Source: a virus
Direction: 5' to 3' (one strand)
Length of the DNA stretch: 64,000 bases
Virus genome (UHGV): UHGV-2031204
The notes beneath the pieces were generated by a model. That model ran no database searches. It saw only the letters and a list, made by a program, of their open reading frames with translations, and was not told the DNA's origin. The translations under genes and the position numbers were made by a program. Position 1 is the first letter of the stretch; each line of letters begins with the position of its first letter. Below, piece after piece: positions 3,284 through 59,752 of the stretch.

Positions 3284-5061
3284 CGTGCAGCTTTGATGTA
3301 TTCAAAAGGATCGGTAATCGTTTCTCCTTGTCTACGTAGAAAAGCTTCTAAGACGACATTTTTATCGGGCAATAGGAAGAAATCTGTCGCGATTTCCATT
3401 GCATTGACGCGCCCCGCAGTAAGGTTAATACCGACACGACGCCGTACCTCTTCAGGAACACCGTGAATGCTCAGTAGCTCGATTAACGTTGTTTCACGAG
3501 ACTGGTTCATCATGTTCGTTGCAGATGGGTATGCCTGGGTTAAGTCAGCATCCGCAGTTTGCCCACGGAAAGCCGTGTAGAAATCATCAACTTCTTTGAT
3601 GATGTTTCGTAGCCCATTCTCTGCGTTCATACACGCAGTCAATGTAACAATCCAACCATCCGTCCCAATGACTTCATTGTCGAAATCGTTACGCATCGCG
3701 CTACCCACACAACCGATAACCAGGCCCTGTTCATAGAGGTAATACGTGTATGCAATACAGATTCGCTTCGGCAGAGAAGGGAAAATATCATACATCGAAT
3801 AACCCGCCAAAACTGAAATAGCAGAAGACAGATCGTTCGTCTTTTTATCGAGCAGAACAATCATCAAGTTATCGAAGATGTTATAAACGCAGTATTCTAA
3901 CGGGAAATCTTTCTGCGCCTTTAAGTGCCATTCCAACTTCTCCTCGTAGGGCAGTTCCGGTAAGTCCAACTTGTTTAAACCCAACTCGGTTTCCAGTATC
4001 GCGTTAAGTTTGTAAGAGGGGCGTTGTCCCTCGTGTACACGCAATGAACGGAATAGACACATTGCATCTACACAGTAGAATGACGCCGTACAATAAAGAA
4101 TGTGCCACTGTTGCGAAGGCGCTTTTGTTAATGACTTTGATTCCGTTTTCTTCGATGCTTCGTCTTTCTTAAAGTAGACACGACGGTACTGTTTTGGCAC
4201 GTCAGGATGACAGAAGACGTCTTCCGGTGGAATCCCCGCAGCTTCTAAAGCTTCCAACATACGTGAAATATCGAACTCGTGGTTCCATGCGACGAGTAAG
4301 TCAGGAAGCCGAGGATGGATTTCCTCAAACATCCGTTGAATGCAACAACCTGAATTGAGGCATTCGTAAACGAAGATTTTGTAACCATCGATAACGTTTT
4401 TGTATTTAACGATAGGATTGTCGTTCTCGTCTTTTCCACGAAAAGCGATTTTAGAAAGCAATTCCTGAGCACGTTTGACGAGTCGCGCTTCAAAGTTTTC
4501 ACGCCCACAACGGGTGACGTAGTCTTTCGTAGCAAAGAAATGAATTTCGTCGTCTAAAACAAAACTCATAATCCAGGGGTCTCGAGACTTGTCTTCTTCT
4601 CGAGTTTCCACGTCGTATACACAGATGCGGTTAGGTGAAACAGCATTAGGCCATTTACGTATGTACTTTTCTTTAATCCAGCTAGTAATGGGCAAATCAG
4701 CCCAGTAAACATACGGTGAAGTACAAACCTGACGGAGTGGTTTCTTTTTATCGGGAAAACGAATCCCCAGACCCATCTGTATGGTTGAGGACATCATTAC
4801 GTCCGTTGTTAAATATTCCTGGCACTTACTACGTTCTTCGTATTCTTTCTTTTCCTTGTGATTACGATGTTGTGGTAAAGTAATGTAGATGGGCCGTTTC
4901 AGATTTTCACGCATGACAATTCGTGGGATATATCTGCCATCTTTAGTATGGACGACCTCCTTTATGAGCACGAAGTCGTTTTCTTTCTGCTGATCGGTTG
5001 CGTAAGAAACAAACTTGCACTCCTTGGCAATAACGTCTTCCGGTGCGTAATAGTTATTCAT
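3280..5061 (-). CDS. DEDD-type 3'-5' exonuclease domain protein (possible proofreading or split-polymerase subunit)
   Basis: Translation contains VYDVETREED (Exo I-like D-x-E), WNHEFDISRM (Exo II-like N-x-x-FD) and YCVDAMCL / YNIFDNL (Exo III-like Y-x3-D). No polymerase palm motifs (DxxSLYPS, YGDTDS) seen. Start set at the internal ATG (MNNYYAPED) rather than the track start at 5175. Confidence 0.5.
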   Translation of the reverse strand: MNNYYAPEDVIAKECKFVSYATDQQKENDFVLIKEVVHTKDGRYIPRIVMRENLKRPIYITLPQHRNHKEKKEYEERSKCQEYLTTDVMMSSTIQMGLGIRFPDKKKPLRQVCTSPYVYWADLPITSWIKEKYIRKWPNAVSPNRICVYDVETREEDKSRDPWIMSFVLDDEIHFFATKDYVTRCGRENFEARLVKRAQELLSKIAFRGKDENDNPIVKYKNVIDGYKIFVYECLNSGCCIQRMFEEIHPRLPDLLVAWNHEFDISRMLEALEAAGIPPEDVFCHPDVPKQYRRVYFKKDEASKKTESKSLTKAPSQQWHILYCTASFYCVDAMCLFRSLRVHEGQRPSYKLNAILETELGLNKLDLPELPYEEKLEWHLKAQKDFPLEYCVYNIFDNLMIVLLDKKTNDLSSAISVLAGYSMYDIFPSLPKRICIAYTYYLYEQGLVIGCVGSAMRNDFDNEVIGTDGWIVTLTACMNAENGLRNIIKEVDDFYTAFRGQTADADLTQAYPSATNMMNQSRETTLIELLSIHGVPEEVRRRVGINLTAGRVNAMEIATDFFLLPDKNVVLEAFLRRQGETITDPFEYIKAAR

Positions 5062-5132: not shown

Positions 5133-6467
5133 ATGGGATATTGGCAAAATCACATTGCATCAGTTGCGGATGCAAAGGTTGTAGCCGCAGAATCGATTAA
5201 ATTCCAAGACAAAAAGAAGCTGGCAGAATTGGCTGATATTATTGCTAAGTTTCGTGGAGCAGGCGATTTCAGTCCTGCTGGCTACGAAAGTGCCGGGGTT
5301 TCGGATTGGGTATTTAAGAATATCGGCATTACGATTCACTTTAAGAACGGTGGTGAACTGGGTCTTGCTGACGTTGCTTTTGCAGGTGTGGAACCACCGA
5401 AATTGGATGCAAACAGTCCAATCATCGCATCGATGACTCGTGCGCTGTACGCAGGTAACAAAGACCTGGATATGTACAGTAAGTTCATCAAAGAAAACGA
5501 GCTAAACTCAACAATCGATGACAGCAGTGCAAAAATCAGTGGCGATCTGAGCAAAGTGGGTTCTCCGCTTTATCTTACCCCGGTGCTGTTGGAAAAATTA
5601 AATTTGACCGATCTGGAAATCGCCTCGGTGATTCTTCACGAAGTCGGGCACATCTACTATTATTTCCGCACTCTGATGCGCACTGTGGTGACTGATTTGC
5701 TGGCGGATGCTGCGGCTAACCGCATCATGGAAACGGAAGACCAGAATGTCCGCTTGCGTATCGTTAAAGACGTAGAGAAGATGCTGAACACGAAAGTGAA
5801 TCAGCCAGAAACGATTTGTACTGAGTACAAAAAAGAAAACGTCTACATGCACTTGGTCACACAGCTGTTATTAGATCGTCCGTTTATTAGTGGCAGTCAA
5901 GGCTTTGCTAACAGAACGTGGGAACGTGCTGCGGACGATTTTGCTTCCCGTTTCGGAGGCGCTCCTTATCTGGCTTCCGCACTGTATAAAATGGAAACCA
6001 GTTCGTTCTATTTGCTGCGGAACTCAGCGTATATGAACATGGGTGTCCATTTGACAGTAGAACTTTTCCGCGTGACTGCGCTGATAGTCTCTTCTACGAT
6101 TCCAATCATTCCGGTGATCTCCGTGACGTTCGGAATGATCTTAAATGACCCGGATAACACCATTTACGATCCGCCACAGCAGCGTTTTGAGGCAATGCGA
6201 CGTACACTCGTTGAAGAACTCAATACGATTAAAGACAAAAATACGAAAGCTGCTAACGAGCAACGTAAACGTATTTTAGATGGTATTGCGGTTATCGACA
6301 AGTTATTAGAAACCGTAAAAGATAAAGATAACTTGTACCAGTTTATCTGGAATACTTTAACGCCGAAGGGTCGTCGCTCACGTGCTGCAGTTGATTACCA
6401 GCGCGCGATTGGGAAGTATATGTCGAACGATCTTCGTATTGCTTCAGCCATGTTTAATGTCGAATAA
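5133..6467 (+). CDS. putative M48-like zinc metalloprotease with hydrophobic segment
   Basis: HExxH at ILHEVGHIYY, then downstream ERAADDFASRFGG resembling the M48/HtpX third-ligand E-x-x-A-D motif; probable TM stretch LIVSSTIPIIPVISVTFGMIL. ATG at 5133 preceded by aaaaggaaac. Confidence 0.45.
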   Translation: MGYWQNHIASVADAKVVAAESIKFQDKKKLAELADIIAKFRGAGDFSPAGYESAGVSDWVFKNIGITIHFKNGGELGLADVAFAGVEPPKLDANSPIIASMTRALYAGNKDLDMYSKFIKENELNSTIDDSSAKISGDLSKVGSPLYLTPVLLEKLNLTDLEIASVILHEVGHIYYYFRTLMRTVVTDLLADAAANRIMETEDQNVRLRIVKDVEKMLNTKVNQPETICTEYKKENVYMHLVTQLLLDRPFISGSQGFANRTWERAADDFASRFGGAPYLASALYKMETSSFYLLRNSAYMNMGVHLTVELFRVTALIVSSTIPIIPVISVTFGMILNDPDNTIYDPPQQRFEAMRRTLVEELNTIKDKNTKAANEQRKRILDGIAVIDKLLETVKDKDNLYQFIWNTLTPKGRRSRAAVDYQRAIGKYMSNDLRIASAMFNVE

Positions 6468-6481
6468 GTAAAGGTAAAATC

Positions 6482-6925
6482 ATGACGCATAAAGTTTCTT
6501 TAAATTCCCTGGTTCTGGACTTTAAACGTACGAACGAGGGTAAAGGTGTACAGGCACAACGCGCACTGACTGGCCTGGTCGCATTCGCATTGGCTTATAA
6601 TACCGATATGCCCGATAATGGTCCGTTTGGGTCGAATGAAGTGTCGCAGCTAAAGCTTCGCCCGCTGATGAAAAATGTTGTTTCGGACGTAAACGAGCTT
6701 TATTGTGTCGATCTGGGCAGTATTGAAGATTTGACAGTGGCACTGTTTTGTAACCGCTACGATAGCGCTTGGGGTGGTCGTCGCGCTATTGAAAACTTCT
6801 CTGTCCGTGAGATTTTCAATGAAGCCTTGGGCGACGATGTATGGGATACCGTTAATCTGTGGCTGGAACGTTTCATGGAAACGGTGAAATTCTATATGGA
6901 AGAAACGCGAGGCGAGCTGGTATGA
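6482..6925 (+). CDS. hypothetical protein
   Basis: 147-aa ORF; stop overlaps the next start (ATGA). Confidence 0.75.
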   Translation: MTHKVSLNSLVLDFKRTNEGKGVQAQRALTGLVAFALAYNTDMPDNGPFGSNEVSQLKLRPLMKNVVSDVNELYCVDLGSIEDLTVALFCNRYDSAWGGRRAIENFSVREIFNEALGDDVWDTVNLWLERFMETVKFYMEETRGELV

Positions 6926-8592
6926 GTATGGAGATGACAGCAAACATTGCGCAACCGCAGTGGAAACTCGATGAACTTCCTGCACTGTTAGAACAGCGTA
7001 TGGAAGAACGCATCGATTCTGTTAGCCAACTCAATCTCTACATGCAACGTAATGAAGCAGACCTGATTTACGGTTCTCGCCTTATCGCGCAAATTGAAGC
7101 GATCTTACGGGAAATACGTAATGCAGGGTTGAACCGTGATGTTGCTGTGGCGACTGAATCGTTGCGTCCTGGCACAATCCCGAAGGCGGTACAAAGTGTT
7201 CTGACGTCGAATTATTCCAAAACACACCAGAAAGAAACGGTGGTGGCATTAGAGTCTTACGCTAATTTTGGTAAGATTAGCCTTATCGTGATGGTGATGA
7301 TGGGGATAATGAAAATCCTCAGTTGGATTATCAGCAACGCCGTTCCTTTTGCAGGTGCTGCGAATATTGACGGGAACGACTATCGTGAGAAACTGGAAGA
7401 GAAGTTGGCCGATGTTCCTTTCACAGAGCGCCTGAAAACAACCGTACTGAAAGAAGTTTATCTGGTACTGTCAAAAGGTTTGAAAGACAGCGAGTTAAGC
7501 AACCTGGAGTTATCTCTTTCGCTGGCCGACGACGTTTTCGTGAACATGGAAGCTGAAGAGTTTCTAAATAAACTCGCCGCTGCGTTAGGTAAATCACCGT
7601 TTATCGATACGTTTAAGAACCATCTTAAACGTCGGCAGAATGAGTTGCAGGTTATTCAGGATCTGCTCGATACGCTGCTTCGGACGAATATCGGTTACGG
7701 TGTATTTGACTTCGGGGTTGCTGAGGAAGTCTATAACGGTTTGCCGCCTGATGTGAAACGTGCTGGAGTGAACATTCCGTCAGATATTCAGTTCAACTTA
7801 ATGAGCACGCTTCTTGACAGTTTTGCCGGTGCGCTTCAGGACTTAGACCAGTCGCTGAAAGACATCAAAACGTATTACCTGTCGAATAATCCGAAGGTAG
7901 GCACATCGCAAGAGAACCAAGTCGCCGCTGTGCATCTGGTTCGTGCGTTAGGCGAGATCAATGGCCGAATTGAATATACTGCCACGGAATTTGGACGACA
8001 GAAAGGTAGCCCGGGTCCAATTTTGCGTGTAAAAGACAAGGTTGAGCTTCTCGGCTATACCACACGTGAATTAGACAACGGTTGGATGATTGCGTCGATC
8101 GGTGCTAACTCTTTCTTTGGCTCCACAACAAATCTGGAGATGATGCGCCAGGAGTTGAGCTTAAGTAACGGGGATTACCGTGAGCTGTTGGCATGTCTGA
8201 TTACACTGGCACGTAGTGGTATCTCGGATGGTGTGGCGAACACCGCACTAGACAAGTATAAGGTGTTGGAGAAACGTGTCGATCAGGTTGTAAAAACCTT
8301 GAAAGATATGGCGCGCCAATCACGTTCTGGCGTCGACAGTCAGAAATGGCAGGCGATGGAACAGGCGTTTAAAGACCAGGTGACGCGAGGGGAGAACTTT
8401 AACCTTCATGGTCGTGAGCTGACCACGATGATGGTGTTAAACCCTGACCGTAATGTCTGGGATTCTGTTGCGCACAGTGCAAACATGATTAACATGTGGT
8501 GCAAGGCCGCAGGGTCTATGGCAACGGTGTTGAAGCGTGCCAAGTCCAACCCACTTGTGAAAGGCGGGAAGTTCAATAAATTGATTGATTAA
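6922..8592 (+). CDS. hypothetical membrane-associated protein
   Basis: Long ORF; the in-frame ATG at 6922 overlaps the upstream stop; hydrophobic segment ISLIVMVMMGIMKILSWIISNAVPFAGAA. Confidence 0.75.
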   Translation: MSMEMTANIAQPQWKLDELPALLEQRMEERIDSVSQLNLYMQRNEADLIYGSRLIAQIEAILREIRNAGLNRDVAVATESLRPGTIPKAVQSVLTSNYSKTHQKETVVALESYANFGKISLIVMVMMGIMKILSWIISNAVPFAGAANIDGNDYREKLEEKLADVPFTERLKTTVLKEVYLVLSKGLKDSELSNLELSLSLADDVFVNMEAEEFLNKLAAALGKSPFIDTFKNHLKRRQNELQVIQDLLDTLLRTNIGYGVFDFGVAEEVYNGLPPDVKRAGVNIPSDIQFNLMSTLLDSFAGALQDLDQSLKDIKTYYLSNNPKVGTSQENQVAAVHLVRALGEINGRIEYTATEFGRQKGSPGPILRVKDKVELLGYTTRELDNGWMIASIGANSFFGSTTNLEMMRQELSLSNGDYRELLACLITLARSGISDGVANTALDKYKVLEKRVDQVVKTLKDMARQSRSGVDSQKWQAMEQAFKDQVTRGENFNLHGRELTTMMVLNPDRNVWDSVAHSANMINMWCKAAGSMATVLKRAKSNPLVKGGKFNKLID

Positions 8593-20848: not shown

Positions 20849-22357
20849 ATGCAACAGTATTTTGAAATTCCGTCGTTAGACGCGACCATTCGCAAACCAA
20901 TAATCGATGGCGTTATACAACGTGTACTTAATGAGTCCGGTATTGATACAGCAGCGGTTGTTTTCCTCGATGAATTCAATAGCGCCCATCAACCGGATTC
21001 TACTCTAGGTGACGGTACTGAAGTAGAGTACAGTTCACCTGAAAAGGTTTACGTTGAAGTAGAAGAAGAACGTGATGAGTGGGCAAGAATCAACCGTCAG
21101 GTTGGTCAGCAGGCTGAACCGTACTTCTTTGAAAACTCCGTCGATCAGGTACGCGCCTGGCCCGTTAGAACGATGTATAACGTAACAGTAACGTTACGAC
21201 GTACCAGTGCCTCACGTGATGAGTTATTGCGCTGGACGAACCGTTTAGACTCATTAGTGGACATGGGCCGTTATTCGACCATGACAGAGTCAGAAGCGTT
21301 CTATTATATCCCTAAACCCGCGTTAAAGTTGTTGAATGCCTGCTACGTTGCTGCAGGAACACGAGTACCAACGTTTGACGATTTTAAAGCCTATTTGAAA
21401 GCGTATTTTACGCCCGACGTATTTCGTGCAGCCAATGTTGCCGGGGGGCAGGAAACCATTGCGGTACGTTACGCACCTACGCGTTTAGAAACGGTATATG
21501 ACGTTCAAACACCGGCCTGGGATAAAGATGAAAACCACTGGGAGGCAACGTTCGTTATCCGTTTCTCTTATCAGCGCCCTGAAGAGATTGTGGTTTCGTA
21601 TCCGTATATCATCAATCAGACACCACTGCCTGATGAATATTGGCCGGAGATAGACCCACCGTGGGTATCTAACGAGGAGTTAGTTTACCGCCACCCACAA
21701 CAGAAGAATCTCGATTCAACCTGGTGGATTAACGAAACTCGTCAGTATATTCGTCTCCCGTATTTGTTATCTCCCACGGAACAGTTCCATCGTACGCACT
21801 CCCCGCTTAAAGATAAGCTCTTACCGATTTTCGGTACAGATGTTGTTTTTGAACCGGACAACATGTTATCGCCGAAGGTGATGTCTACGGAAGATTTACC
21901 TTACGAATGGAACGAAGCGTTGCTACCGTATATCGAACATTGTCGTGCGATTGACCCGACAGGACAGACGGGTGTTTTCCGTATCGAGTTGTTCGAAGAG
22001 GGACAGATTATCGAACCGCGTTTCTACCATTGGGAAGGAAATACGTTTTCGCTTAAAGGTCGTGACCTGAAAGTAAATAAGGGTTATTACTTAACCGAAT
22101 CGGTCATGTTTGACTGGCGTGGAATGAACCTCTGGCCATTACAGTTATATCCACAGGCAGCGAAAGTATTAATTGAGTGGTTGTTCCCGAAATGGGACGT
22201 TCCTGATTGGTGGTGGGATAAGCCGGTGTTACCGCCGAGTGTTATCGATGACATTAATAAACTGATTCCGAACGTAGAAGCCCGTGTGTTATTGACGGTG
22301 CTGAACTCGACCATTATTACCATGCGAGGAACAGAGAATGCTCAAAGCGAAGCGTGA
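20849..22357 (+). CDS. hypothetical protein
   Basis: 502-aa ORF with aaggaacaagcc RBS. Confidence 0.85.
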   Translation: MQQYFEIPSLDATIRKPIIDGVIQRVLNESGIDTAAVVFLDEFNSAHQPDSTLGDGTEVEYSSPEKVYVEVEEERDEWARINRQVGQQAEPYFFENSVDQVRAWPVRTMYNVTVTLRRTSASRDELLRWTNRLDSLVDMGRYSTMTESEAFYYIPKPALKLLNACYVAAGTRVPTFDDFKAYLKAYFTPDVFRAANVAGGQETIAVRYAPTRLETVYDVQTPAWDKDENHWEATFVIRFSYQRPEEIVVSYPYIINQTPLPDEYWPEIDPPWVSNEELVYRHPQQKNLDSTWWINETRQYIRLPYLLSPTEQFHRTHSPLKDKLLPIFGTDVVFEPDNMLSPKVMSTEDLPYEWNEALLPYIEHCRAIDPTGQTGVFRIELFEEGQIIEPRFYHWEGNTFSLKGRDLKVNKGYYLTESVMFDWRGMNLWPLQLYPQAAKVLIEWLFPKWDVPDWWWDKPVLPPSVIDDINKLIPNVEARVLLTVLNSTIITMRGTENAQSEA

Positions 22358-46028: not shown

Positions 46029-46066
46029 AACCTCTACCTTCGGGTAGAGGTTACTTCTTTTTATTT
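46029..46066 (+). terminator. intrinsic terminator
   Basis: aacctctaccttcgggtagaggtt followed by a T-rich tract. Confidence 0.75.
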
Positions 46067-46113: not shown

Positions 46114-46767
46114 GTGGAACCATTACGCTTAATGACCAGAACGTTACTGATACCTATTCAGGACCTGAAGGTTGGACCGTTGGTCACCTCCAATGGGGAA
46201 ATTGTTGATTTCGTTAAAGAGGAAAAAATTGTTACGGCGGCTTTTCAAGAGACGCTCCATCGCCATTATCGTGCAGTACCTTTATCTGGCAGTCTAGATT
46301 GTCCGGGTGTAGAGGGGAGTACGTCTGCGTTAATAGCGGAGCATTTAGAAAAGAAAGGGTTTGGGGTCGGGAAAGGACAGGTTTTTGTAGACACTGCCAC
46401 ACTGAACAAATACCAAAACGACCTAATGTTACAGATAAGGAGATTACTTGCCCGTTATGGTCTTTTCTCGATTAATTGTAAGTTTGACGACGTTCGGATG
46501 TTAGACCACGGTTTTACTACCAGCCTTAAAATCTGTCGTGGTAAAAGATTCATACAGTTTACCTGGTGGGTGCCATCCCTACGAGGTGAGAGAAAAACGG
46601 TGGAAGGGCTGTATGGTTGGGCTTTATGGGCCGAAGTTCCAGTAACGAAACTCGATGCGATTATTCCACAGCATCGAAACGTTCCACTTAGCAGTTTATT
46701 TACTTCTGGTGGGAACACCACGTGGGATGAATTTGTTAAAAACGTTTTATCGATAGGGGAACAATAA
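46114..46767 (+). CDS. hypothetical protein
   Basis: GTG at 46114 about 8 nt after aaggag; the track start at 46087 would put the RBS inside the ORF. Confidence 0.7.
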   Translation: MEPLRLMTRTLLIPIQDLKVGPLVTSNGEIVDFVKEEKIVTAAFQETLHRHYRAVPLSGSLDCPGVEGSTSALIAEHLEKKGFGVGKGQVFVDTATLNKYQNDLMLQIRRLLARYGLFSINCKFDDVRMLDHGFTTSLKICRGKRFIQFTWWVPSLRGERKTVEGLYGWALWAEVPVTKLDAIIPQHRNVPLSSLFTSGGNTTWDEFVKNVLSIGEQ

Positions 46768-47243
46768 TGCAGCAGTTAGATATTACCGAAGACAAAATTT
46801 CCGCTAAATTTCCTGAATTACGTGAATACGTCAAAGACTTAAATTCGATTCGGGAAACGCCAGTTAGAATCACGTTGGCTGTTGAAGACGATATTACACA
46901 TGGGGTTGCAATCTGGGAGCCGGGGAATCTTATCTATCTGGTAGTGGCCGAAGGTTCTCGTCGTAGCGGTGTAGGTTCCTTTTTACTGAAATACGTTCAA
47001 CTTAATTCAGATCGTCAAATGGTGATGTGTCGTGTCCATCCCTCAAACATAGACGGGCTGTGTTTCTTTTCCAAAAAAGGCTTCCAAATAGACCGATGGT
47101 TTATTGCCAGTGACTCCCGTCGGTATTTTCGTATGACGAACAGTAACGTTGATTCGTCATACGCCCCGCCGGAAGAAGGATATTTGGTGGATTTTATTGA
47201 AAACACCCCCATCTTTCTCTCTGTTGCGGATAAGATTTATTAG
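46767..47243 (+). CDS. putative GNAT-family acetyltransferase
   Basis: IYLVVAEGSRRSGVGSFLLKYVQ resembles GNAT motif A (R-x-x-G-x-G), at the usual position in a ~160-aa protein. Confidence 0.5.
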   Translation: MQQLDITEDKISAKFPELREYVKDLNSIRETPVRITLAVEDDITHGVAIWEPGNLIYLVVAEGSRRSGVGSFLLKYVQLNSDRQMVMCRVHPSNIDGLCFFSKKGFQIDRWFIASDSRRYFRMTNSNVDSSYAPPEEGYLVDFIENTPIFLSVADKIY

Positions 47244-49479: not shown

Positions 49480-50613
49480 ATGTCAACATTAGATTCCGAT
49501 TTAGAAGTCCTTTGCGATGACTACGATCGATTGGTCGCGTTAGAATCGCTTAATGTTAAAGACAACTATCCGGCGGTTGTCGCTATCCGAAAACGGTGGG
49601 CTTTAGATGATGTCCACGTTGCGTTGGAGTCCGCAGCGATGATGGAACGCGCGCAATTTGTTGCGGACACCGAGCCTTACGCAGGGGTAGGTAAAGCGGT
49701 CGCACGCGCGACCGGCAGAGCGGTTAAGGGAGTTGGACGCGTTGCTGGAAAAGCAGCAGTGGCAGGAGCCAAAGCGTCTGGAAAATTCGCAGGTAAACAT
49801 TCTAAGCAACTGGCCTTACGTTTTATCGACTTCGCGGAAGCCGCTGGTAAAGAAGTTATTAATGAACTGAAAGAAGCGACGTCCAAAGCATCGTCGTTAG
49901 AGCGGAAGCTACAGAAGTTAGAAGCACGTTTAAGTTTACTCGGTATCAAGGACACCTTAAAACCGGTTGACTGTGACACAGGAAGTTGGACAACCAAAGT
50001 TTGTTTAGAAGACAAGCCTAACGTAAAAGCATGTATTGAGTTCAGTAAGAACCTGAGCGCAATGGATGCGATGGTCAACGAGTATACTGTTAAAACACGT
50101 ACGTTAATCGGTAAGAGCAAGAAAGTTACCGAGAGCGGTTTGGAGAAAGTGGGCCGGTCAACGAACTGGGCGATTAAACGAAGCGCAGGACTGTTCGGTA
50201 TTATCGATCCGTTTAAAACGGTGAAAGCATATCCGTGGCCAGGTAACGTGGTGGTCGTTGAACACGACAGCGGTAAGATTGAGTGGGCGATTGCCCGCGA
50301 TGGTGATTTTGGCCACACAATTAAATCTCTGAACTTGCACGAAATCGGTTCAGCATTCGACGCCGTTAGAAACATTATCCGAGCGTTACGTCAGCGTGGT
50401 GCGAAACGACGTAGTGTTGGGTATACAGGAATTTATGATGAAATTCAACGTATGCGTAAGGAACTTAAGTCGCTTGAAGGGCGGGAGTTACGCGACGCTA
50501 CCGTACGTTATAAAAACGCACTGCGTTTAGAAGATGCGTTTACTACCTCGTTAGTGCGCGTTGCGGAAGGGTTACTGGAATGGTGCAGGTTGTCGCTGAT
50601 TGAGGTTAAATAA
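49480..50613 (+). CDS. hypothetical protein with Gly/Ala/Lys-rich repeat region
   Basis: 377-aa ORF; region GKAVARATGRAVKGVGRVAGKAAVAGAKASGKFAGK. Confidence 0.8.
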   Translation: MSTLDSDLEVLCDDYDRLVALESLNVKDNYPAVVAIRKRWALDDVHVALESAAMMERAQFVADTEPYAGVGKAVARATGRAVKGVGRVAGKAAVAGAKASGKFAGKHSKQLALRFIDFAEAAGKEVINELKEATSKASSLERKLQKLEARLSLLGIKDTLKPVDCDTGSWTTKVCLEDKPNVKACIEFSKNLSAMDAMVNEYTVKTRTLIGKSKKVTESGLEKVGRSTNWAIKRSAGLFGIIDPFKTVKAYPWPGNVVVVEHDSGKIEWAIARDGDFGHTIKSLNLHEIGSAFDAVRNIIRALRQRGAKRRSVGYTGIYDEIQRMRKELKSLEGRELRDATVRYKNALRLEDAFTTSLVRVAEGLLEWCRLSLIEVK

Positions 50614-51080
50614 TGCGTATTACTATTATTCTCAAACCCGACAGTAAATACGGAAAGTTATACGGCGACCAGGTACTCAAACTGCACAACATGCTGTTCG
50701 CAGAAGAGAAAGTGCGTATTAGTCAGTTAACCGGTCGCGACACGTTCAACCCAATTGAACACTTAGAAGAGATTTGGCCCCAAGATTATCTCTGTGCGTG
50801 TGCCGTGGATGTCAACGAACAACTTCTGGGTTTCATGACGTTCTCAATAGGTTCTTGCTCGAAGGACACATTTGTTTATATTGGGAACTACTATGTGATT
50901 CCCGAAGCGCGTTCTCAGGGGGTAGGGCGTGCGCTTATGGACAAAGTCCGTGAATACGGAAAGTCCAAAGGTTGCGGTTGGATGAGTTTGGATGTGCTGG
51001 ACAACAACGTTAAAGCTATCTCCTTGTATGAGAAAATGGGATTCCGTACTGAATGCAGGGAAATGATAAAGGAAATCTAA
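50613..51080 (+). CDS. GNAT-family N-acetyltransferase
   Basis: YVIPEARSQGVGRALMDKVREYGKSKGCGWMSLDVLDNNVKAISLYEKMGF matches GNAT motifs A and B (Q/R-x-x-G-x-G/A ... Y-x-K-x-GF). Confidence 0.7.
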   Translation: MRITIILKPDSKYGKLYGDQVLKLHNMLFAEEKVRISQLTGRDTFNPIEHLEEIWPQDYLCACAVDVNEQLLGFMTFSIGSCSKDTFVYIGNYYVIPEARSQGVGRALMDKVREYGKSKGCGWMSLDVLDNNVKAISLYEKMGFRTECREMIKEI

Positions 51081-53419: not shown

Positions 53420-54043
53420 ATGCTTAAGACCGTGTCTATTGATGGTCCTGATTTTTCTGGGAAATCAACGTTGTGTAAAATGGTAAAAGCGATGTTGGAG
53501 TCCGCAGGATTAAAAGTGTGTATTCGGAACCATCCGACGTCTGAAACCGAGGCGGGTATTCGTGCACGTAGCTTGGTTGTACAGTCTGCTTCGAAAACAA
53601 AAATTGCTGAAGCAATGTGTGATGACTTCCTTCACACGTTAGACCATGTTGTTGACGAGTACGATGTTGTTATTTTCGATCGCTTCTGCCCTTCAACGAT
53701 TGTTTATCAGGGGACAGATGGCAAGGACGTGGTTTTCCAACGTAAGCTAACTCGTCATTTCCACGCACCCGACCTTTATGTTTGGACAGATGTTGATTAC
53801 CCAACAGCGTTAGCGCGATTTAAGAAACGTGTAGAAGAACAAGGTAAGAATTGGGACGATGAGGTACTTACGGTTAAGTACCTAAAGGACAACCAATCTT
53901 GGGATGGCTTACGCGACCATTATCGTTTCGCGCATCACATCTTAACAGAAGGTGGTTGTCTTCACGCATTATTACCAGTAACGCAGAATGACGATTACCG
54001 TTTGAAAGCCGCTGAGATTGTTACGCACATTTTAGCAAACTAA
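53420..54043 (+). CDS. thymidylate kinase-like P-loop nucleotide kinase
   Basis: N-terminal P-loop SIDGPDFSGKSTL resembles the Tmk G-x-x-G-x-G-K-S-T motif; DRF at the expected DRY/DRF position; length (207 aa) fits. Substrate specificity not determinable by eye. Confidence 0.55.
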   Translation: MLKTVSIDGPDFSGKSTLCKMVKAMLESAGLKVCIRNHPTSETEAGIRARSLVVQSASKTKIAEAMCDDFLHTLDHVVDEYDVVIFDRFCPSTIVYQGTDGKDVVFQRKLTRHFHAPDLYVWTDVDYPTALARFKKRVEEQGKNWDDEVLTVKYLKDNQSWDGLRDHYRFAHHILTEGGCLHALLPVTQNDDYRLKAAEIVTHILAN

Positions 54044-54050
54044 CCGCTTA

Positions 54051-54088
54051 GGTACCACCCAACGGTGGTACCTATATTTTATTTTTTC
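54051..54088 (+). terminator. intrinsic terminator
   Basis: ggtaccacccaacggtggtacc followed by a T-rich tract. Confidence 0.75.
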
Positions 54089-54089
54089 T

Positions 54090-54113
54090 CAGATATATTT
54101 TACTTAGGTGAGA
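54090..54113 (+). promoter_or_regulatory. conserved promoter-like motif, copy 3 (cagatatattttacttaggtgaga)
   Basis: Matches the 18311/26567 24-mer with 2 mismatches; directly after a terminator; followed by inverted repeat agagtta/taactct; about 50 nt before the HTH gene start. Confidence 0.5.
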
Positions 54114-54163
54114 GTTATGATTAACTCTTTACACCGACTTGTTAACCTAAAGGAGTATTTACA

Positions 54164-54523
54164 ATGGCTTACAATCACAATTCCATCGTTCTGGCAAAAC
54201 GTAAATTCGGTCTTCACTTGTCTTACGTAATTCGTCATTTGACCACAAAAGACATTACCCAGCGTGAACTTGCCCAGCTTGCGAAAGTTTCACAACCTGT
54301 TATCTCGTCTATTAAGAACGATCACTCAGAACGTTTAAGTTTACCGATTATGATGAAAGTTGCTGATGCGATTCGTCTGAAATACCAGATTAGTTTTAAT
54401 TCCGTTAAGGGTCGTTGCTCAGTAACCGTTCACGTAGAGTCCGCGTTAGACTACGTTGCAAACACGTCCATTAAACGCACCACGAAGAATGTGCGTTTTA
54501 TCACTAACACCGCAACACACTAA
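54164..54523 (+). CDS. XRE-family helix-turn-helix DNA-binding protein (putative transcriptional regulator)
   Basis: ITQRELAQLAKVSQPVISSIKNDHSE fits the Cro/C1-type HTH pattern (Q-x-x-LA-x-x-x-x-VS-x-x-x-IS-x-x-E). Confidence 0.55.
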   Translation: MAYNHNSIVLAKRKFGLHLSYVIRHLTTKDITQRELAQLAKVSQPVISSIKNDHSERLSLPIMMKVADAIRLKYQISFNSVKGRCSVTVHVESALDYVANTSIKRTTKNVRFITNTATH

Positions 54524-54544
54524 TCAACCTTAAGGAGTATTATC

Positions 54545-55216
54545 ATGCCACCGAAAATTGGTAAAACTGTAATTGAAGAAACTGTAAAGAACGAGACTAA
54601 AGCCAATGAAGTTCAACATGCTGCGAAGGTTGAACTTTTACCCTGCGTTAATGAAATACTCGGGGTGAAATTCTTAACTTTTAGCCCGCATACTGACCTG
54701 GTTTTCGATCTTTATCAAGACCAGCCTTTCAACCTATTCACACTTGTCTGTACTTATAATGGCGATGTTCTGGCAGTTGCTCCTGCTCTTAATAGAGACA
54801 AGTTACTTACAGGTACGGTTATTACTGAAATTCTTCTGCGGTTAATGCATAAGTTTGAAGGGCCTGAACTTGACAAAATCGCTGTTAAGTTAGCTGACCT
54901 ACTAGTCAATGCTGCCGTCTGGTTGAGTTTTAACCCTTCTATCTATTTCCATTTCAATACAAATATTCTTCACGCCGTAACAGACGATGGTAAAAAGTAT
55001 CGCATCTTAATTAAGGGTGGGGTGCAACAACCTTTGTTCTCTAGACAAAACTGCCATATTAAGTTTTCGCCTGACTTGGTAGAAGTTTACGGCCAGCGAG
55101 TAGCGGATGGCCACTACGAGGTCCATCTCAGATTTTTCAATTACCTGTATGAAAAATTAGGGAAAGCTGGCTTGACACCCAATCTTGCTTTCACAAGTTC
55201 TGCCCCTTTTGCGTGA
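54545..55216 (+). CDS. hypothetical protein
   Basis: 223-aa ORF with taaggag RBS. Confidence 0.8.
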   Translation: MPPKIGKTVIEETVKNETKANEVQHAAKVELLPCVNEILGVKFLTFSPHTDLVFDLYQDQPFNLFTLVCTYNGDVLAVAPALNRDKLLTGTVITEILLRLMHKFEGPELDKIAVKLADLLVNAAVWLSFNPSIYFHFNTNILHAVTDDGKKYRILIKGGVQQPLFSRQNCHIKFSPDLVEVYGQRVADGHYEVHLRFFNYLYEKLGKAGLTPNLAFTSSAPFA

Positions 55217-55228
55217 TGTTTAATAATT

Positions 55229-55260
55229 GGGGAACTTCGGTTCCCCTTTCTTTTTTTGTT
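55229..55260 (+). terminator. intrinsic terminator
   Basis: ggggaacttcggttcccc followed by a long T-run; related to the 20773 hairpin. Confidence 0.75.
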
Positions 55261-55311
55261 TTTACAGCTTTAGCGTATTGTTTTGAGACGACCTTTTAAG
55301 GAGTAATTAAC

Positions 55312-56310
55312 ATGGCTTTTAGGATGATTATAAAACATACCGCCACAGATTTAACAGTAGGTCGGTTAGCACGTAGAGATATTCGCAACCCTCAACTTCA
55401 GGCATGTTTATCGGGCCCTAACGGTGCTGTGATTCGTGAGGCGTTGTGCAATAGTGAACTGAATACGTTCTCTTTACAAAAAGGAAAAACAATTCAAGGG
55501 TTTATCATCACAAAACACATTTACGGTGACCCAACGTTACACTGCTTGTATATGCATGAAATTGTACCGGGCTGTTTGAACAAACTGAACCTACTATTGG
55601 TACTCGACTATACCGGTTTTACGTATCTTAATCGAATCGCCAGTGGTGTAGAAGAAATCGCCGAACTTAATGACTTAGGATTTAAACACACCCGCACTAC
55701 GTACCGTTTAGGTACACGCTCGTTGTTGGATATCGCTCTACCAACAAACGTGAAGAACGTCTCCGGCGATTTTTATAAAGAGTTAACCGCCGCACAACGC
55801 GAACAGCTTATGTTGCTTTTGGGTACGAGCGTCGTTGAAAACATCAACGCTGACCCTGTGGGCCGCACACGACAAATAATGCCGCAAGTCGAAACGTTGG
55901 TGGAGCTAGTACGCCACGTCAACCACCACACTTACGTTTGGATGGACGCTAACGATGTTGTGGGTGTGGTGCAAGTTAAATTGCGTAATCTTAACGAGTG
56001 TGAATTAAAAGCCATTGCGGTAAATGAAACACATCGTGGTCGTGGTATCGGACGGACTTTGTTGTATCGTGCTCTACAGATTGCTTCGACAACAGCGGCA
56101 CCATTAGAGATAGGGTGTTTCAATAACAACGCACCGTTTAGACACTTGGCCGTCGATTTATTTAAATTTCGACCTTTCGAATACGAATTTGTTTTAGTGC
56201 GCGACGAAAACGTCGTCAGTTGGGAGCGTCAGAAAAATCATGTCAAGTTGGTGTTAGACGACGAAGTGTCATCGTTACAAGGCGGATATAATGCGGAAAC
56301 CAATTATTAA
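55312..56310 (+). CDS. two-domain protein with C-terminal GNAT acetyltransferase domain
   Basis: C-terminal region LKAIAVNETHRGRGIGRTLLYRALQIAS is GNAT motif A-like; the N-terminal ~170 residues have no motif I recognise; 3' end overlaps the dam start by 20 nt. Confidence 0.5.
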   Translation: MAFRMIIKHTATDLTVGRLARRDIRNPQLQACLSGPNGAVIREALCNSELNTFSLQKGKTIQGFIITKHIYGDPTLHCLYMHEIVPGCLNKLNLLLVLDYTGFTYLNRIASGVEEIAELNDLGFKHTRTTYRLGTRSLLDIALPTNVKNVSGDFYKELTAAQREQLMLLLGTSVVENINADPVGRTRQIMPQVETLVELVRHVNHHTYVWMDANDVVGVVQVKLRNLNECELKAIAVNETHRGRGIGRTLLYRALQIASTTAAPLEIGCFNNNAPFRHLAVDLFKFRPFEYEFVLVRDENVVSWERQKNHVKLVLDDEVSSLQGGYNAETNY

Positions 56311-57106
56311 GTGGATGGGTGGGAAAACACGCGTTTTAGGGGAATTACAAAAGGTCTTACCTAAACGTACAACCTTTGTAGAACCGTTTGTGGGTGCAGG
56401 GTCTGTTTTCCTAAATACGAATTACAGCCGGTATATTTTATCGGATTCTAACCCCGATTTGATACGCTTACTTTGTGTTGCGCGTGAACAGCCTGAAGAA
56501 CTGATCGCCGCGTCGCAGCCGTTGTTCTTAGACGGTAATACCGCCGTAAAGTATATGGAACGTCGTGAGCTCTTTAATAGCGGTAAATCGATGTCAGAAG
56601 TTGAACGGGCAGCGATGTTTTTATACTTAATGCGTCACGGCTATAACGGGATGTGTCGCTATAACAGTAGTGGTGGGTTCAATGTTCCGTTTGGTCGTTA
56701 CCCGAATGGGGTTTATTACCCATTAGAAGAAATTCGGGATTGGGCTAAACGTTGCGCAGAAGTTGATTATCTGGAAATTGTTTGTGAGGACTTTCGTTCT
56801 GTATTAGCGCGGACACCTGAGGATGCTGTGATTTATGCTGATCCTCCTTATATTCCGTTATCGGATACCGCGAAACATGCGCAATACCACCGTAAAGAAT
56901 TCTCACAAACGGATCATCGAGAATTAGCCAAGTTACTACAGCAGCAGGTGGAACGTGGCAACAGCGTCGTGCTGTCAAATGCAGACACCCTGCTCACCCG
57001 AGAAATTTATTACGGTTTTGAGTGGCGCAGTATTGAGGTCGGTCGCTATATGGGTGCGTCTGGTGCCGCTCGGAAAACAGTGACTGAACTACTGGGAGTG
57101 CTCTAA
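56291..57106 (+). CDS. dam: DNA adenine (N6) methyltransferase, Dam family
   Basis: KWMGGK, EPFVGAGSVFLNT, LYLMRHGYNGMCRYN..GGFNVPFGRY and the catalytic DPPY are all present and collinear with E. coli Dam (comparison from memory). Confidence 0.9.
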   Translation: MRKPIIKWMGGKTRVLGELQKVLPKRTTFVEPFVGAGSVFLNTNYSRYILSDSNPDLIRLLCVAREQPEELIAASQPLFLDGNTAVKYMERRELFNSGKSMSEVERAAMFLYLMRHGYNGMCRYNSSGGFNVPFGRYPNGVYYPLEEIRDWAKRCAEVDYLEIVCEDFRSVLARTPEDAVIYADPPYIPLSDTAKHAQYHRKEFSQTDHRELAKLLQQQVERGNSVVLSNADTLLTREIYYGFEWRSIEVGRYMGASGAARKTVTELLGVL

Positions 57107-57879
57107 TGCGCATAGTGGATATCCACGATTATCGTAATGACCATTTAGCAATTGGTGTGGACGGGAAAATGGTTTCACTAACCCGTGTACGGAAAGGGTT
57201 ATTGGAAAAGGACGTCATACGCGAGTCTGAAGACCCGACCTTTATCATTCTTTCGAACACGAATCAGCTACAAGGAATCTTCTCCGGTCGTGTCGATGGT
57301 AAGTTTTTCTACATGTCGGCAATCGTTGTGTTTGCGAAGAAGAAAATTAATTTCGCACAACTCAAACGTTTGTTAAAAGTGGAGATGTTTGATGTCACAT
57401 ACCCTGCCAATGACCTAAAACGTCGTGACCAGTTAATGGTGTATTTGGGTATGCAGCCGACGTCCATCGACTATGACCTGACGTTTACTGAAGAACCCGA
57501 AGTTCGCACCGATTTACCTGATGTAGTTGATATTGAATCTCTAACGTTAGAAGAAACGTTTACGATCCCTAAGGTGGTTAATGTCAGTTTGGATACATAC
57601 TGCCTGGGATTGTTAGCTATTGGGGCTGCTGAGGGGCTGTGCTGTCGTAAAGACGGTAAAGTTGAAGGTATCTTAGTCTATTCGAAAATCAACGAAAAGA
57701 CGTTTGCAACCGAAGGTTTCTTCTATAACGACTGTACATACGGGATTGCGCTCTTGACCACATACTACCGTATTGCGTATTTAAAGGGTGCATCCGTGCG
57801 TCTTACTTTTCCATACTCAGCACCTCCAGCAATGTCTGGTGTTGAAGTAGAAGCATTAACTGGCCATTTTATCTTTTAA
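57106..57879 (+). CDS. hypothetical protein
   Basis: 257-aa ORF; start overlaps the dam stop. Confidence 0.8.
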   Translation: MRIVDIHDYRNDHLAIGVDGKMVSLTRVRKGLLEKDVIRESEDPTFIILSNTNQLQGIFSGRVDGKFFYMSAIVVFAKKKINFAQLKRLLKVEMFDVTYPANDLKRRDQLMVYLGMQPTSIDYDLTFTEEPEVRTDLPDVVDIESLTLEETFTIPKVVNVSLDTYCLGLLAIGAAEGLCCRKDGKVEGILVYSKINEKTFATEGFFYNDCTYGIALLTTYYRIAYLKGASVRLTFPYSAPPAMSGVEVEALTGHFIF

Positions 57880-57888
57880 GGACATTGA

Positions 57889-58116
57889 ATGGAAATCAAA
57901 CGTATTGTAACCAAAGACAAAAAGATTACTTATGTTGCAGGCGATAACGAATTCTCGGCGGTTATTAATGACGAGAACGTGCTGATTATCGGTTATCCAG
58001 GTAAAGTCATTACTCGTAGCCATCAGCGCGTGATTGACAAACTCATCGCCAAAGCAAAAGCACGCGATGGTGTTGGTTCAGTACAAACCCATACCGGGTT
58101 AACGTTGGCACTCTAG
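57889..58116 (+). CDS. hypothetical small protein
   Basis: 75-aa ORF with aaggacattga RBS. Confidence 0.65.
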   Translation: MEIKRIVTKDKKITYVAGDNEFSAVINDENVLIIGYPGKVITRSHQRVIDKLIAKAKARDGVGSVQTHTGLTLAL

Positions 58117-58154
58117 CCAGCAGGTAATATGACCTCTTAACTGGAGACTTAGAG

Positions 58155-58661
58155 ATGAAAGAGACTCTGGATTTTAATCAGCTGGAGCAGCACGATTTTG
58201 ATCTCGGTGTTCGCAACTTAGAAGCTGACTACGAAACACGTTGTAAAGAATTCTTTAATCGCTACGGGCAATTGATTACCGGGGCGTCTGAAGACACCGA
58301 ATTCTCGTTAGACGATTTCGAAAAGATTCTGTCTTGCTTTATCACCGACAGCTTAGCGAAACAGGCGTTGCTGGTAGAACAGAACCTGCAAATGGTGGAG
58401 CCTACGGATGCTCACGCCGTACTAAAAGAATCCATTATTCCGAATGACGAAATTATGGATGCGGTAGCAGGTATTCGCGGTACGTTCGACACAGCTGTGG
58501 AAGACTATACCGAACAGCTTCGTGAGTCTGGGTTAACGTTGTGTGCACCTGCGGGCGAACAGTTACCTTCTGAAGAAGAAACGGAAGAAGCACGCAGTCG
58601 CTTAGCGCGCTATGTGATTACTTCTATTTTAGTAGACGATCGCGAAGAAAACGTACTGTAA
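58155..58661 (+). CDS. hypothetical acidic protein
   Basis: 168-aa ORF, D/E-rich; terminator follows. Confidence 0.75.
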   Translation: MKETLDFNQLEQHDFDLGVRNLEADYETRCKEFFNRYGQLITGASEDTEFSLDDFEKILSCFITDSLAKQALLVEQNLQMVEPTDAHAVLKESIIPNDEIMDAVAGIRGTFDTAVEDYTEQLRESGLTLCAPAGEQLPSEEETEEARSRLARYVITSILVDDREENVL

Positions 58662-58665
58662 ACTT

Positions 58666-58706
58666 CCCCTCTCTCCGTTTGGAGAGAGGGAGTATTTATT
58701 TTTACG
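58666..58706 (+). terminator. intrinsic terminator
   Basis: cccctctctccgtttggagagaggg followed by a T-rich tract; identical stem-loop recurs at 59713. Confidence 0.75.
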
Positions 58707-59712: not shown

Positions 59713-59752
59713 CCCCTCTCTCCGTTTGGAGAGAGGGTACTTTTATTTTTAT
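59713..59752 (+). terminator. intrinsic terminator (copy of the 58666 hairpin)
   Basis: cccctctctccgtttggagagaggg followed by a T-rich tract. Confidence 0.75.

Follow-up and report, generated by a model that had tools for sequence, protein, structure and literature searches.

The locus at positions 55312 to 57106 of the window (the whole 64,000-nt stretch of UHGV virus genome UHGV-2031204 that was analysed) is probably best explained, overall, by a gene for a tandem-GNAT acetyltransferase lying beside an ordinary dam, the two enzymes acting independently. Comparison of related genomes argues against a coupled modification system and for operon neighbours that have been lost and swapped independently. 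Coupled modification or regulation had been proposed in the preliminary description and, if true, would constitute a DNA-modification or regulation module of a new kind; with the comparative evidence against it, the pair may be set aside as ordinary operon neighbours. Nor is the pair new: annotations of SPN3US (gp104/gp105) and relatives already contain it, and in several genera the GNAT-dam order, likewise annotated, is a matter of inherited synteny. Features of the locus are listed below.

54545..55216, + strand: 223-aa gene, function unknown, hypervariable cassette; adjoins the GNAT gene upstream.
55229..55254, + strand: terminator-like hairpin GGGGAACTTCGGTTCCCC, then a T-run, ending the preceding transcription unit (terminator scan).
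55255..55290, + strand: conserved promoter-like module TTTTTAC(A) ... TATTGTT ... GA (putative promoter).
55298..55303, + strand: Shine-Dalgarno sequence AAGGAG of the GNAT gene (sequence reading).
55312..56310, + strand: GNAT gene, tandem-GNAT N-acetyltransferase, 332 aa.
55345..55716, + strand: predicted N-terminal degenerate GNAT fold, ~aa 12-135, without the Q/R-x-x-G-x-G/A loop.
55744..56211, + strand: C-terminal canonical GNAT domain, ~aa 145-300.
56035..56052, + strand: motif A, acetyl-CoA pyrophosphate loop, R242-G-R-G245-I-G247 (sequence reading and regex).
56218..56307, + strand: C-terminal tail, aa 303-332, predicted disordered (pLDDT <50).
56279..56286, + strand: SD-like AAGGCGGA of dam, within the end of the GNAT ORF, 4 nt 5' of the ATG (sequence reading).
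56291..56310, + strand: GNAT/dam overlap, 20 nt.
56291..57106, + strand: dam, orphan Dam-family N6-adenine DNA methyltransferase, 271 aa.
56387-56401, + strand: FxGxG AdoMet motif of dam, F33-V-G-A-G37 (sequence reading).
56840-56851, + strand: DPPY motif of dam, D184-P-P-Y187 (sequence reading).
57106..57879, + strand: D1, 257 aa, probable degenerate paralogue of the tandem-GNAT fold, lacking motif A; the D1 start and the dam stop share 1 nt.
58667..58700, + strand: next strong terminator-like hairpin, probable end of the transcription unit (terminator scan).

The window phage is a distant SPN3US-like jumbo phage. It shares with SPN3US a syntenic block of Tmk, HTH, hypothetical, GNAT and Dam genes, followed by paralogues of ~265 aa. 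Megablast of window positions 54000-58200 against a phage collection of 50,697 records gives no match, so DNA-level kinship to deposited genomes is only distant. The GC and GC3 of GNAT, Dam and D1, compared with the window, are free of a compositional anomaly pointing to recent import.

The 332-aa ORF is a real gene, not a chance ORF: its match to phrog_8663 spans the entire length (E 4.5e-49), and 48 phage records contain full-length homologues. Exhaustive HMMER search of 1.84 billion representatives yields ~8 full-length clusters, all of 315-335 aa, by which the family appears confined to SPN3US-like jumbo phages; a word-indexed protein search yields 4 matches only. Acetyltransf_1 (PF00583) is matched at aa 199-279 (E 1.1e-11, 45.5 bits, gathering threshold 20.7). 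No Pfam match is found on aa 1-190. The AF2 model (pLDDT 82, pTM 0.75) has GNAT topology in both halves, with the mixed beta-sheet and the order b1-a1-a2-b2-b3-b4-a3-b5-a4-b6 characteristic of the fold; two GNAT folds are present in one polypeptide, one of them without the cofactor motif. Two-domain composition with a C-terminal GNAT, as claimed earlier, is upheld. The N-terminal domain, previously unassigned, is resolved by the model as a degenerate second GNAT fold, and this reading extends to the N-terminal half of the phrog_8663 family, whose PHROG label is 'unknown function'. Structure matches of the model in BFVD include N-myristoyltransferases and FemAB-family proteins. Both are two-GNAT folds, consistent with two GNAT halves in the 332-aa protein. 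BLASTP detects nothing significant between the N-terminal and C-terminal halves, nor between GNAT and D1; both relations are visible only in profiles and structure. The N-terminal fold holds the most conserved motifs of the family, GDPTL-C-Y and LD(Y/H)TGF. The tail starts with the family-conserved motif V-S-W-(E/K)-(R/K)-x-K; the last four codons of the gene (ETNY) are read-on and sub-lineage-specific. Identities as MshD, RimI or streptothricin acetyltransferase were rejected, all being far under the NCBIfam cut-offs; the MshD equivalog TIGR03448 scores 21.3 bits against a cut-off of 163.1, with one domain matched.

In the proposed mechanism, the degenerate N-terminal GNAT fold, devoid of the acetyl-CoA loop, would pack against the canonical C-terminal GNAT with its R-x-x-G-x-G loop. 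The C-terminal domain would bind acetyl-CoA, and the acetyl group would be passed to an amine acceptor in the inter-domain cleft, by analogy with MshD-type enzymes. Likeness to MshD lies in architecture rather than substrate: the tandem-GNAT proteins MshD mycothiol synthase (PDB 1ozp), VipF (6wqb), 3tt2, MAB_4324 (7q3a) and ORF14 (2wpw) are 8-12% identical to the window protein. Judging by the pattern of evolution alone, the likeliest acceptor would be a protein or metabolite that belongs to the host or is related to conflict.

The 271-aa protein is an ordinary orphan Dam-family methylase, and its gene has its own ribosome-binding site. MethyltransfD12 (PF02086) covers aa 8-249 (E 3e-57, Pfam). 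TIGR00571 is matched with 254.9 bits (cut-off 114.85), which identifies dam as a real gene, not a chance ORF. In comparison with E. coli/T4-type Dam (TIGR00571; PF02086), the match is full-length, FxGxG and DPPY are intact, and no endonuclease partner is nearby; the E. coli Dam equivalog is under its cut-off (258.6 vs 441 bits). The FVGAG and DPPY columns are invariant across 8 Dam homologues, with the exception of the A36 position. The start at 56291 is backed by the N-terminus M-R-x-I-x-K-W-x-G-G-K, conserved in 7 of the 8 relatives. Among PADLOC models, orphan methyltransferase fits Dam best; GNAT, D1 and the upstream 223-aa gene match none. A restriction-modification or defence system was considered and rejected, as no partner nuclease or defence protein adjoins the methylase. 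GATC occurs 153 times in the window (244 expected from base composition), but CATG is similarly low (158), so the GATC shortfall carries no signal of target specificity. Dam would methylate DNA independently of GNAT.

GNAT and dam are probably co-transcribed. The terminator scan finds no terminator-like site between them, and a terminator and the conserved promoter-like module lie just upstream of GNAT; co-expression, suggested earlier, is thus plausible. GNAT would be the first gene of a compact unit composed of the terminator and promoter-like module, GNAT, dam, D1 and further genes. The hairpin and T-run upstream of GNAT are conserved in relatives, and TTTTTAC is invariant across the aligned intergenic regions (n=8). 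The pattern TTTACA-N(6-11)-TATTGTT occurs once in the window, versus 0.02 times expected. The upstream motif TTTTTGTnTTTTTACA was rejected as a general promoter: with <=3 mismatches it has 14 matches (6.4 expected), with one other good site, at 46056, and it is not pervasive in the window.

The stop of the GNAT gene lies 20 nt inside the dam ORF, as originally described, the shared positions being 56291-56310. Packing of this kind is ordinary in the genome: of the window's 59 same-strand neighbour pairs, 20 overlap (crude ORF set), and another 20-nt overlap is found at 22338. RNA structure at the GNAT/dam junction is not special (z -0.46). In the close relatives L003, L004 and L019 the overlap is 8 nt (ATGCATAAA). 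Overlap is limited to the window clade (20 or 8 nt); the GNAT-dam gap in other genera is 1-79 nt. In SPN3US there is a gap, not an overlap: 30 nt as annotated, but probably ~6 nt, since homology to Dam extends 5' of the annotated start. The 20-nt overlap arose because one substitution destroyed the GNAT stop of the 8-nt overlap: in the alignment with relatives, a CAT to CGG change removed the TAA. The 8-nt form would be ancestral.

All comparisons are made within one phage lineage with strong general synteny. GNAT and dam have the same order and orientation in the window clade as in Seoulvirus, Machinavirus and Wellingtonvirus. Functional coupling, whereby GNAT would acetylate or regulate Dam, or both would jointly modify phage DNA, with stoichiometry set by translational coupling, draws on this adjacency, co-orientation and probable co-transcription in four genera, and on the position of the dam SD inside the GNAT ORF with the 8-20 nt overlap of the window clade. 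It also has a conceptual precedent in Mom of phage Mu, a GNAT-superfamily adenine-N6 acyl-modifying enzyme, expression of which depends on host Dam via promoter methylation; the likeness consists in a GNAT-superfamily enzyme and a Dam within one phage biology. Mom modifies adenine itself, whereas the models matched by the window protein are ordinary acetyl-CoA GNAT ones, and the protein is distributed independently of Dam. No Mom-like family appeared among its matches in Pfam, PHROG and NCBIfam, libraries that may lack a Mom model. Mom-family GNAT-superfamily enzymes occur in other jumbo phages (PMC7824862). Coupling is nevertheless very improbable. Erskinevirus (Asesino, phiEaH2, Stratton) has the Dam closest to that of the window (71-72% identical), in the same syntenic block and preceded by the terminator and promoter module that heads the GNAT-dam-D1 unit here, but no GNAT homologue, either locally or by tblastn at E<=0.01. 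No Dam is present anywhere in the 224-kb genome of Cronobacter phage CR5, which nevertheless encodes two full-length homologues of GNAT (hhalign prob 98.6 and 98.9%). The near-identical phages L003 and L019 are 97.8% identical in Dam and 96.9% in D1, but only 45.4% in GNAT; their DNA identity falls at ~55348 and returns at ~56240-56340, placing the recombination breakpoints at the edges of the GNAT ORF. Cross-genus identity is 50-82% for Dam and 19-42% for GNAT. The exhaustive HMMER search of 1.84 billion representatives contains no GNAT-Dam fusion, and the overlap is not conserved. The pair is thus without the obligate co-occurrence, the co-evolution or joint inheritance, and the conserved overlap or fusion of an obligate pair. 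The Pfam matches are to ordinary acetyl-CoA GNAT families, and the near-neutral protein (pI 7.7; C-terminal domain 6.6) gives no hint of DNA binding. Since the order is kept in four genera and co-transcription is probable, a trans-acting relation, e.g., acetylation of Dam, might still exist.

It is unlikely that GNAT is the catalytic subunit of a hetero-oligomer with degenerate paralogues 3' of dam (D1 here, D1-D3 elsewhere), like the catalytic and auxiliary subunits of other acetyltransferase complexes, dam being an insertion into the array. D1 is a probable degenerate tandem-GNAT-fold copy, and phrog_9941 and its relatives, adjacent genes labelled 'hypothetical', probably encode degenerate copies of that fold too. 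The alignment of D1 to the GNAT family is colinear across both domains (prob 76-82%, E about 1e-5), and the D1 model matches GNAT-superfamily folds only, with VipF aligned over 187 residues, although this model is of low confidence (pLDDT 60) because it was built from a shallow alignment. In BFVD, the GNAT model also hits proteins about as long as D1 or D2 (Kwan, phiEaH2, others; E 1e-9 to 1e-14); BFVD matches of 213-215 aa are A0A1B2IE03 and A0A1B2IDM8. CR5 carries a run of three genes of 285-295 aa, uninterrupted by dam. Motif A is kept only in G (the GNAT here), C1 and C2 among the array members. Against a complex, D2, D3 and C3 have no significant relation to G by sequence, and D1 and D2 persist in Erskinevirus after loss of the catalytic G, so that they must work without it. 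It is quite improbable, too, that the 332-aa protein is a pseudoenzyme, devoid of acetylating activity and used for binding or as a scaffold. A conserved Tyr is the general acid in many GNATs; in this family it is not conserved, the column after L279 holding A, V, F, Y or L. The central Gly of motif A is Arg in Machinavirus and Wellingtonvirus, so that activity may not be family-wide, and the best-conserved motifs lie in the non-catalytic N-terminal domain. Chimallin, with a C-terminal GNAT fold devoid of active-site residues, is a precedent (PMC9365700). Loss of activity is opposed by the strict R/Q-x-x-G-x-G motif A, which persists in the window clade, in Seoulvirus and in the two Derbicusvirus paralogues, by Pfam GNAT scores above threshold, and by G247, N273 and Q221, invariant across the GNAT family alignment.

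For the tandem-GNAT acetyltransferase acting independently of Dam, a tentative extension is possible. In it, dam would sit inside a lineage-specific array of tandem-GNAT-fold paralogues with one or two competent copies (G here; C1 and C2 in Derbicusvirus) and one to three degenerate ones (D1-D3, C3); the competent copy and its upstream gene would be independently exchanged hypervariable cassettes, arms-race-like in pattern, and the enzyme a candidate counter-defence or host-takeover acetyltransferase with alleles tracking different host targets. Cassette alleles (GNAT and the upstream gene) are 37-45% identical in genomes otherwise 90-98% identical; for GNAT, the window or L019 type is 41-45% identical to the L003 type. 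Such divergence is typical of arms-race loci, which would make the tandem GNAT a candidate for counter-defence or host takeover. GNAT is an accessory, fast-evolving, cassette-like gene; as the hypervariable catalytic copy, it is a reasonable candidate for phage-host conflict screens in SPN3US-like phages.

SPN3US gp104 (AEP83937 / YP_009153398, 'GNAT family N-acetyltransferase'), with gp105 Dam, belongs to the orthologous family (phrog_8663; two-domain length class, 314-335 aa), with only ~27-29% identity to the window GNAT. No published function for SPN3US gp104-gp107 was found among the full texts searched; these products are absent from PMC5105663 and PMC5694885, and PMC9992855 tested another acetyltransferase of SPN3US, 154 aa long. 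Rac of phiKMV-like phages is likewise a phage-encoded accessory GNAT, a functional analogy only. Many jumbo-phage GNATs are predicted to act on host proteins like Rac (PMC7824862).

The 223-aa gene has no Pfam or PHROG matches. By sequence it is unrelated to the GNAT family, hhalign giving a probability of 1%, which offers no ground for calling it a paralogue. Erskinevirus is devoid of both this gene and GNAT. The product shares 37% identity with its counterparts in L003 and L019, which are 88.5% identical to each other.

The GNAT gene and dam stand in a common compact operon-like arrangement, with these features:

55312–56310, + strand: GNAT ORF, 332 aa (ORF list and sequence)
56279–56286, + strand: SD-like AAGGCGGA before dam (read from sequence)
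56291–57106, + strand: dam ORF, 271 aa (ORF list and sequence)
56387–56401, + strand: Dam FxGxG motif, intact and conserved
56840–56851, + strand: Dam DPPY motif, intact and conserved
57106–57879, + strand: D1 ORF, 257 aa, overlapping the dam stop by 1 nt

The GNAT and dam ORFs have 20 nt in common. Pfam places Acetyltransf_1 at aa 199–279 of the 332-aa protein (E 1.1e-11, above threshold) and matches nothing in aa 1–190. The layout given in the preliminary description, a C-terminal GNAT domain and a 20-nt overlap with the dam ORF, is accurate. The 271-aa protein is spanned by MethyltransfD12 (Pfam, E 3e-57) and passes the NCBIfam dam subfamily model (254.9 bits, cut-off 114.85). Its best PADLOC model is 'orphan methyltransferase', and no defence partners are found nearby by PADLOC; Dam is a canonical orphan methylase. 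The N-terminus M-R-x-I-x-K-W-x-G-G-K, which bears on the dam start, is kept in 7 of 8 relatives. The dam genes annotated in SPN3US (L001 6000–6024; MGGK...) and Asesino (L009 4501–4588) seem to start too late: homology in tblastn extends 18–87 nt upstream of the annotated starts and takes in the conserved KW that precedes GGK.

The region has no megablast match among 50,697 phage records. Full-length homologues of the 332-aa protein (tblastn, 23–29% identity) occur in 48 phage records, all of ~240 kb jumbo phages related to Salmonella phage SPN3US (Seoulvirus, Machinavirus, Wellingtonvirus, relatives). Closer relatives are confined to metagenomes and to E. coli or Shigella assemblies (contigs ~224–225 kb). 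The gene order Tmk, HTH, hypothetical, GNAT, Dam, ~265-aa proteins is common to the window and the SPN3US relatives, and the SPN3US pair, gp104 and gp105, is publicly annotated as GNAT and DNA adenine methylase. The pairing is therefore inherited synteny, already in public annotation, and the window GNAT is a divergent new member of a known, annotated jumbo-phage gene family, adjoining an ordinary Dam. No experimental data on SPN3US gp104–gp107 were found in the literature searched.

Fold prediction, proposed earlier as a check on the unassigned N-terminal domain, finds GNAT topology there. The AlphaFold2 model (nine-sequence family alignment; mean pLDDT 82, pTM 0.75) has the GNAT strand/helix order in residues 14–133 and again in 147–296, with a tail (303–332) predicted disordered. 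It gives long alignments to the tandem GNATs VipF 6wqb (215), 3tt2 (225), MAB_4324 7q3a and ORF14 2wpw. Foldseek against BFVD returns orthologues at TM ~0.8 and, at lower scores, N-myristoyltransferases and FemAB-family proteins, which are two-GNAT folds. The Q/R-x-x-G-x-G/A loop is absent from the N-half; the C-half carries R242-G-R-G-I-G247. Together, model and sequence show two GNAT folds in tandem, with the cofactor loop intact in the C-terminal one. The family's best-conserved motifs, GDPTL-C-Y and LD(Y/H)TGF, sit in the N-half, which suggests a conserved role for it; by analogy with other tandem GNATs, this would be acceptor binding. Searched exhaustively with HMMER, 1.84 billion representatives yield only ~8 full-length clusters, all of 315–335 aa, with no GNAT-methylase fusions among them.

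'Hypothetical' genes of 250–295 aa follow dam as a single copy in the window, two copies in SPN3US and Erskinevirus, and three in Caitlin and ChrisDB. They lie at:

57106–57879 in the window (D1)
6828–8453 in SPN3US (L001)
5173–7546 in related phage locus L006
5889–6776 in related phage locus L011

These genes (phrog_9941 and relatives) appear to be paralogues whose tandem-GNAT fold is degenerate and lacks the acetyl-CoA motif, which places dam within an array of GNAT-fold paralogues. The D1 family (phrog_9941) is colinear with both GNAT-family domains (hhalign probability 76–82%, E ~1e-5); the D1 model is of low confidence (pLDDT 60), better in the N-half. Uncharacterised BFVD proteins of 256–278 aa (Kwan, phiEaH2, others) match the GNAT model (E 1e-9 to 1e-14, TM 0.5–0.6), and by length and organism would correspond to D1 and the next downstream gene, D2. 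Motif A is kept only in the GNAT itself and in its two Derbicusvirus homologues, C1 and C2; it is absent from D1, D2 and the third Derbicusvirus gene, C3. D2, D3 and C3 have no significant sequence relation to the GNAT. The upstream 223-aa gene was rejected as a relative, having no relation to the GNAT family by sequence. Uncharacterised jumbo-phage proteins of 213–215 aa in BFVD (A0A1B2IE03, Kwan, 215 aa; A0A1B2IDM8, Huxley, 214 aa; A0A8E7G123; A0A1B2IBG0) match the tandem-GNAT model as well (Foldseek E 1e-6 to 1e-7, TMt 0.52–0.56), and on these models the GNAT-fold family may be larger still in SPN3US-like jumbo phages. Further GNATs in the window are:

50613–51080: single-domain GNAT, 155 aa (Pfam Acetyltransf_1, E 5e-19), directly after a phiKZ-type internal head protein gene (49480–50613)
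46767–47243: weak GNAT, 158 aa (weak Acetyltransf_7 match)

The region is generally GNAT-rich, and a GNAT beside any given gene here is therefore unsurprising. The 155-aa ORF matches in position a 154-aa protein of SPN3US, a candidate spermidine acetyltransferase distinct from gp104 and negative in a spermidine acetylation assay; the Caitlin and phiEaH2 candidates were active in the same study (PMC9992855).

The preliminary description had read the GNAT-Dam pair as co-expressed and possibly coupled in modification or regulation. Co-expression is plausible; functional coupling is opposed by four independent observations: Dam without GNAT, GNAT without Dam, no co-evolution and unequal rates. The Dam proteins nearest to the window's (71–72% identity) come from Erskinevirus (phages Asesino, phiEaH2 and Stratton), with the block Tmk, HTH, hypothetical, ~200 nt, Dam, D1, D2 and the GNAT gene missing. 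Erskinevirus genomes are unmatched by the window GNAT (tblastn, E<=1e-5) and by an Erwinia Seoulvirus GNAT (E<=0.01), and local tblastn finds no GNAT remnant at the locus. Derbicusvirus (CR5, EarlPhillipIV) has Tmk, two annotated GNATs of 285–289 aa and a ~295-aa gene, with no methylase between them. Both GNATs are full-length homologues (hhalign probability 98.6% and 98.9%, ~200–220 columns) with Pfam GNAT in the C-half. Tblastn detects no Dam in the whole 224-kb CR5 genome (best E 1.6), and methylase annotation is absent. Across genera, Dam is 50–82% identical and GNAT 19–42%.

Across the window, L003 and L019, all close phages, identities are 91–95% for HTH, 90–97% for D1 and 82–98% for Dam. 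The GNAT of L003 is only 41–45% identical to those of the window and L019, which share 84%. Sliding DNA identity places breakpoints at ~54563, 55348 and 56240–56340, at ORF edges. A divergent GNAT beside a near-invariant Dam, with such breakpoints, therefore marks the GNAT, at the level of sequence, as an independently exchanged cassette. The upstream 223-aa gene of the window is 37% identical to those of L003 and L019, which share 88.5%; 54545–55216 (223-aa gene) and 55312–56310 (GNAT) are independent divergence islands among otherwise 85–98% identical phages. This mosaicism is cassette-like, typical of accessory or conflict genes. Window dam DNA (56339–57038) has 62–75% identity to L003 and L019, against 85–90% for flanking HTH and D1; L003 and L019 are 92–98% identical over the same stretch. 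The window dam is possibly another, milder allele replacement.

One sister genus dispenses with the GNAT and another has it duplicated; the gene evolves fast and is exchanged as a cassette. Its role is therefore most likely accessory and host- or conflict-directed, the target being a protein or a small molecule, as a comparative review (PMC7824862) predicts for many GNATs of jumbo phages. As in MshD-type enzymes, the degenerate N-domain would position an amine acceptor, and the C-domain would bind acetyl-CoA and acetylate it. The neighbours by sequence are of generic kinds (RimI, streptothricin or IAA acetyltransferases, VipF), and a specific NCBIfam acetyltransferase identity was rejected, every match being far under its cut-off. 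DNA modification jointly with Dam is the least supported role. In a tentative, rather unlikely reading, the GNAT would be the catalytic copy in an array of tandem-GNAT paralogues and a hypervariable conflict cassette.

The GNAT-dam overlap is not special. Of 59 same-strand neighbour pairs in a crude gene set covering the window, 20 overlap, among them a second overlap of 20 nt at 22338. The overlap is 8 nt in L019 (85%-identical relative) and in L003 and L004 (42%-identical relative); gaps of 1 to 79 nt occur in Huxley, SNUABM_29, Caitlin, ChrisDB, SPN3US and Wellington. In the alignment, the relatives have ...AAT GCA TAA at the junction when read in frame with GNAT, and ATG CAT AAA when read in frame with dam. 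The window has CGG in place of CAT (Dam His2 to Arg), so that the GNAT stop TAA became GAA, adding four codons (ETNY) to the next stop, hence 20 nt. RNA folding at the junction is unremarkable (z -0.46). No terminator-like site is found between GNAT and dam. Upstream of GNAT on the + strand stand a terminator-like hairpin and T-run (55229–55254), a conserved TTTTTAC...TATTGTT module and AAGGAG. Co-transcription is plausible from this sequence arrangement, in line with the proposed co-expression. The whole intergenic module comprises, in order, a GC-rich TTCG-loop hairpin, T-run, invariant TTTTTAC, TATTGTTGTGA-like box, SD and ATG, and lies at:

55229–55290 in the window
~4300–4370 in related phage locus L010
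~4300–4370 in Asesino (L009)
~4906–4994 in SPN3US (L001)

In the window, SPN3US, SNUABM_29 and Caitlin it stands 5' of GNAT; in Erskinevirus, a genus without GNAT, it stands 5' of dam, the ~200-nt gap there containing this terminator with its promoter-like module. It probably serves a phage RNA polymerase as a terminator-promoter unit, and its motif is not common elsewhere in the window. The next + strand terminator-like site is at 58667, barring a weak match at 57785 inside the D1 ORF. Two identical copies of a 24-nt hairpin, CCCTCTCTCCGTTTGGAGAGAGGG, lie ~1 kb apart on the + strand (58667–58690 and 59714–59737). Each copy stands 3' of an ORF, and the hairpin thus looks like a repeated terminator element.
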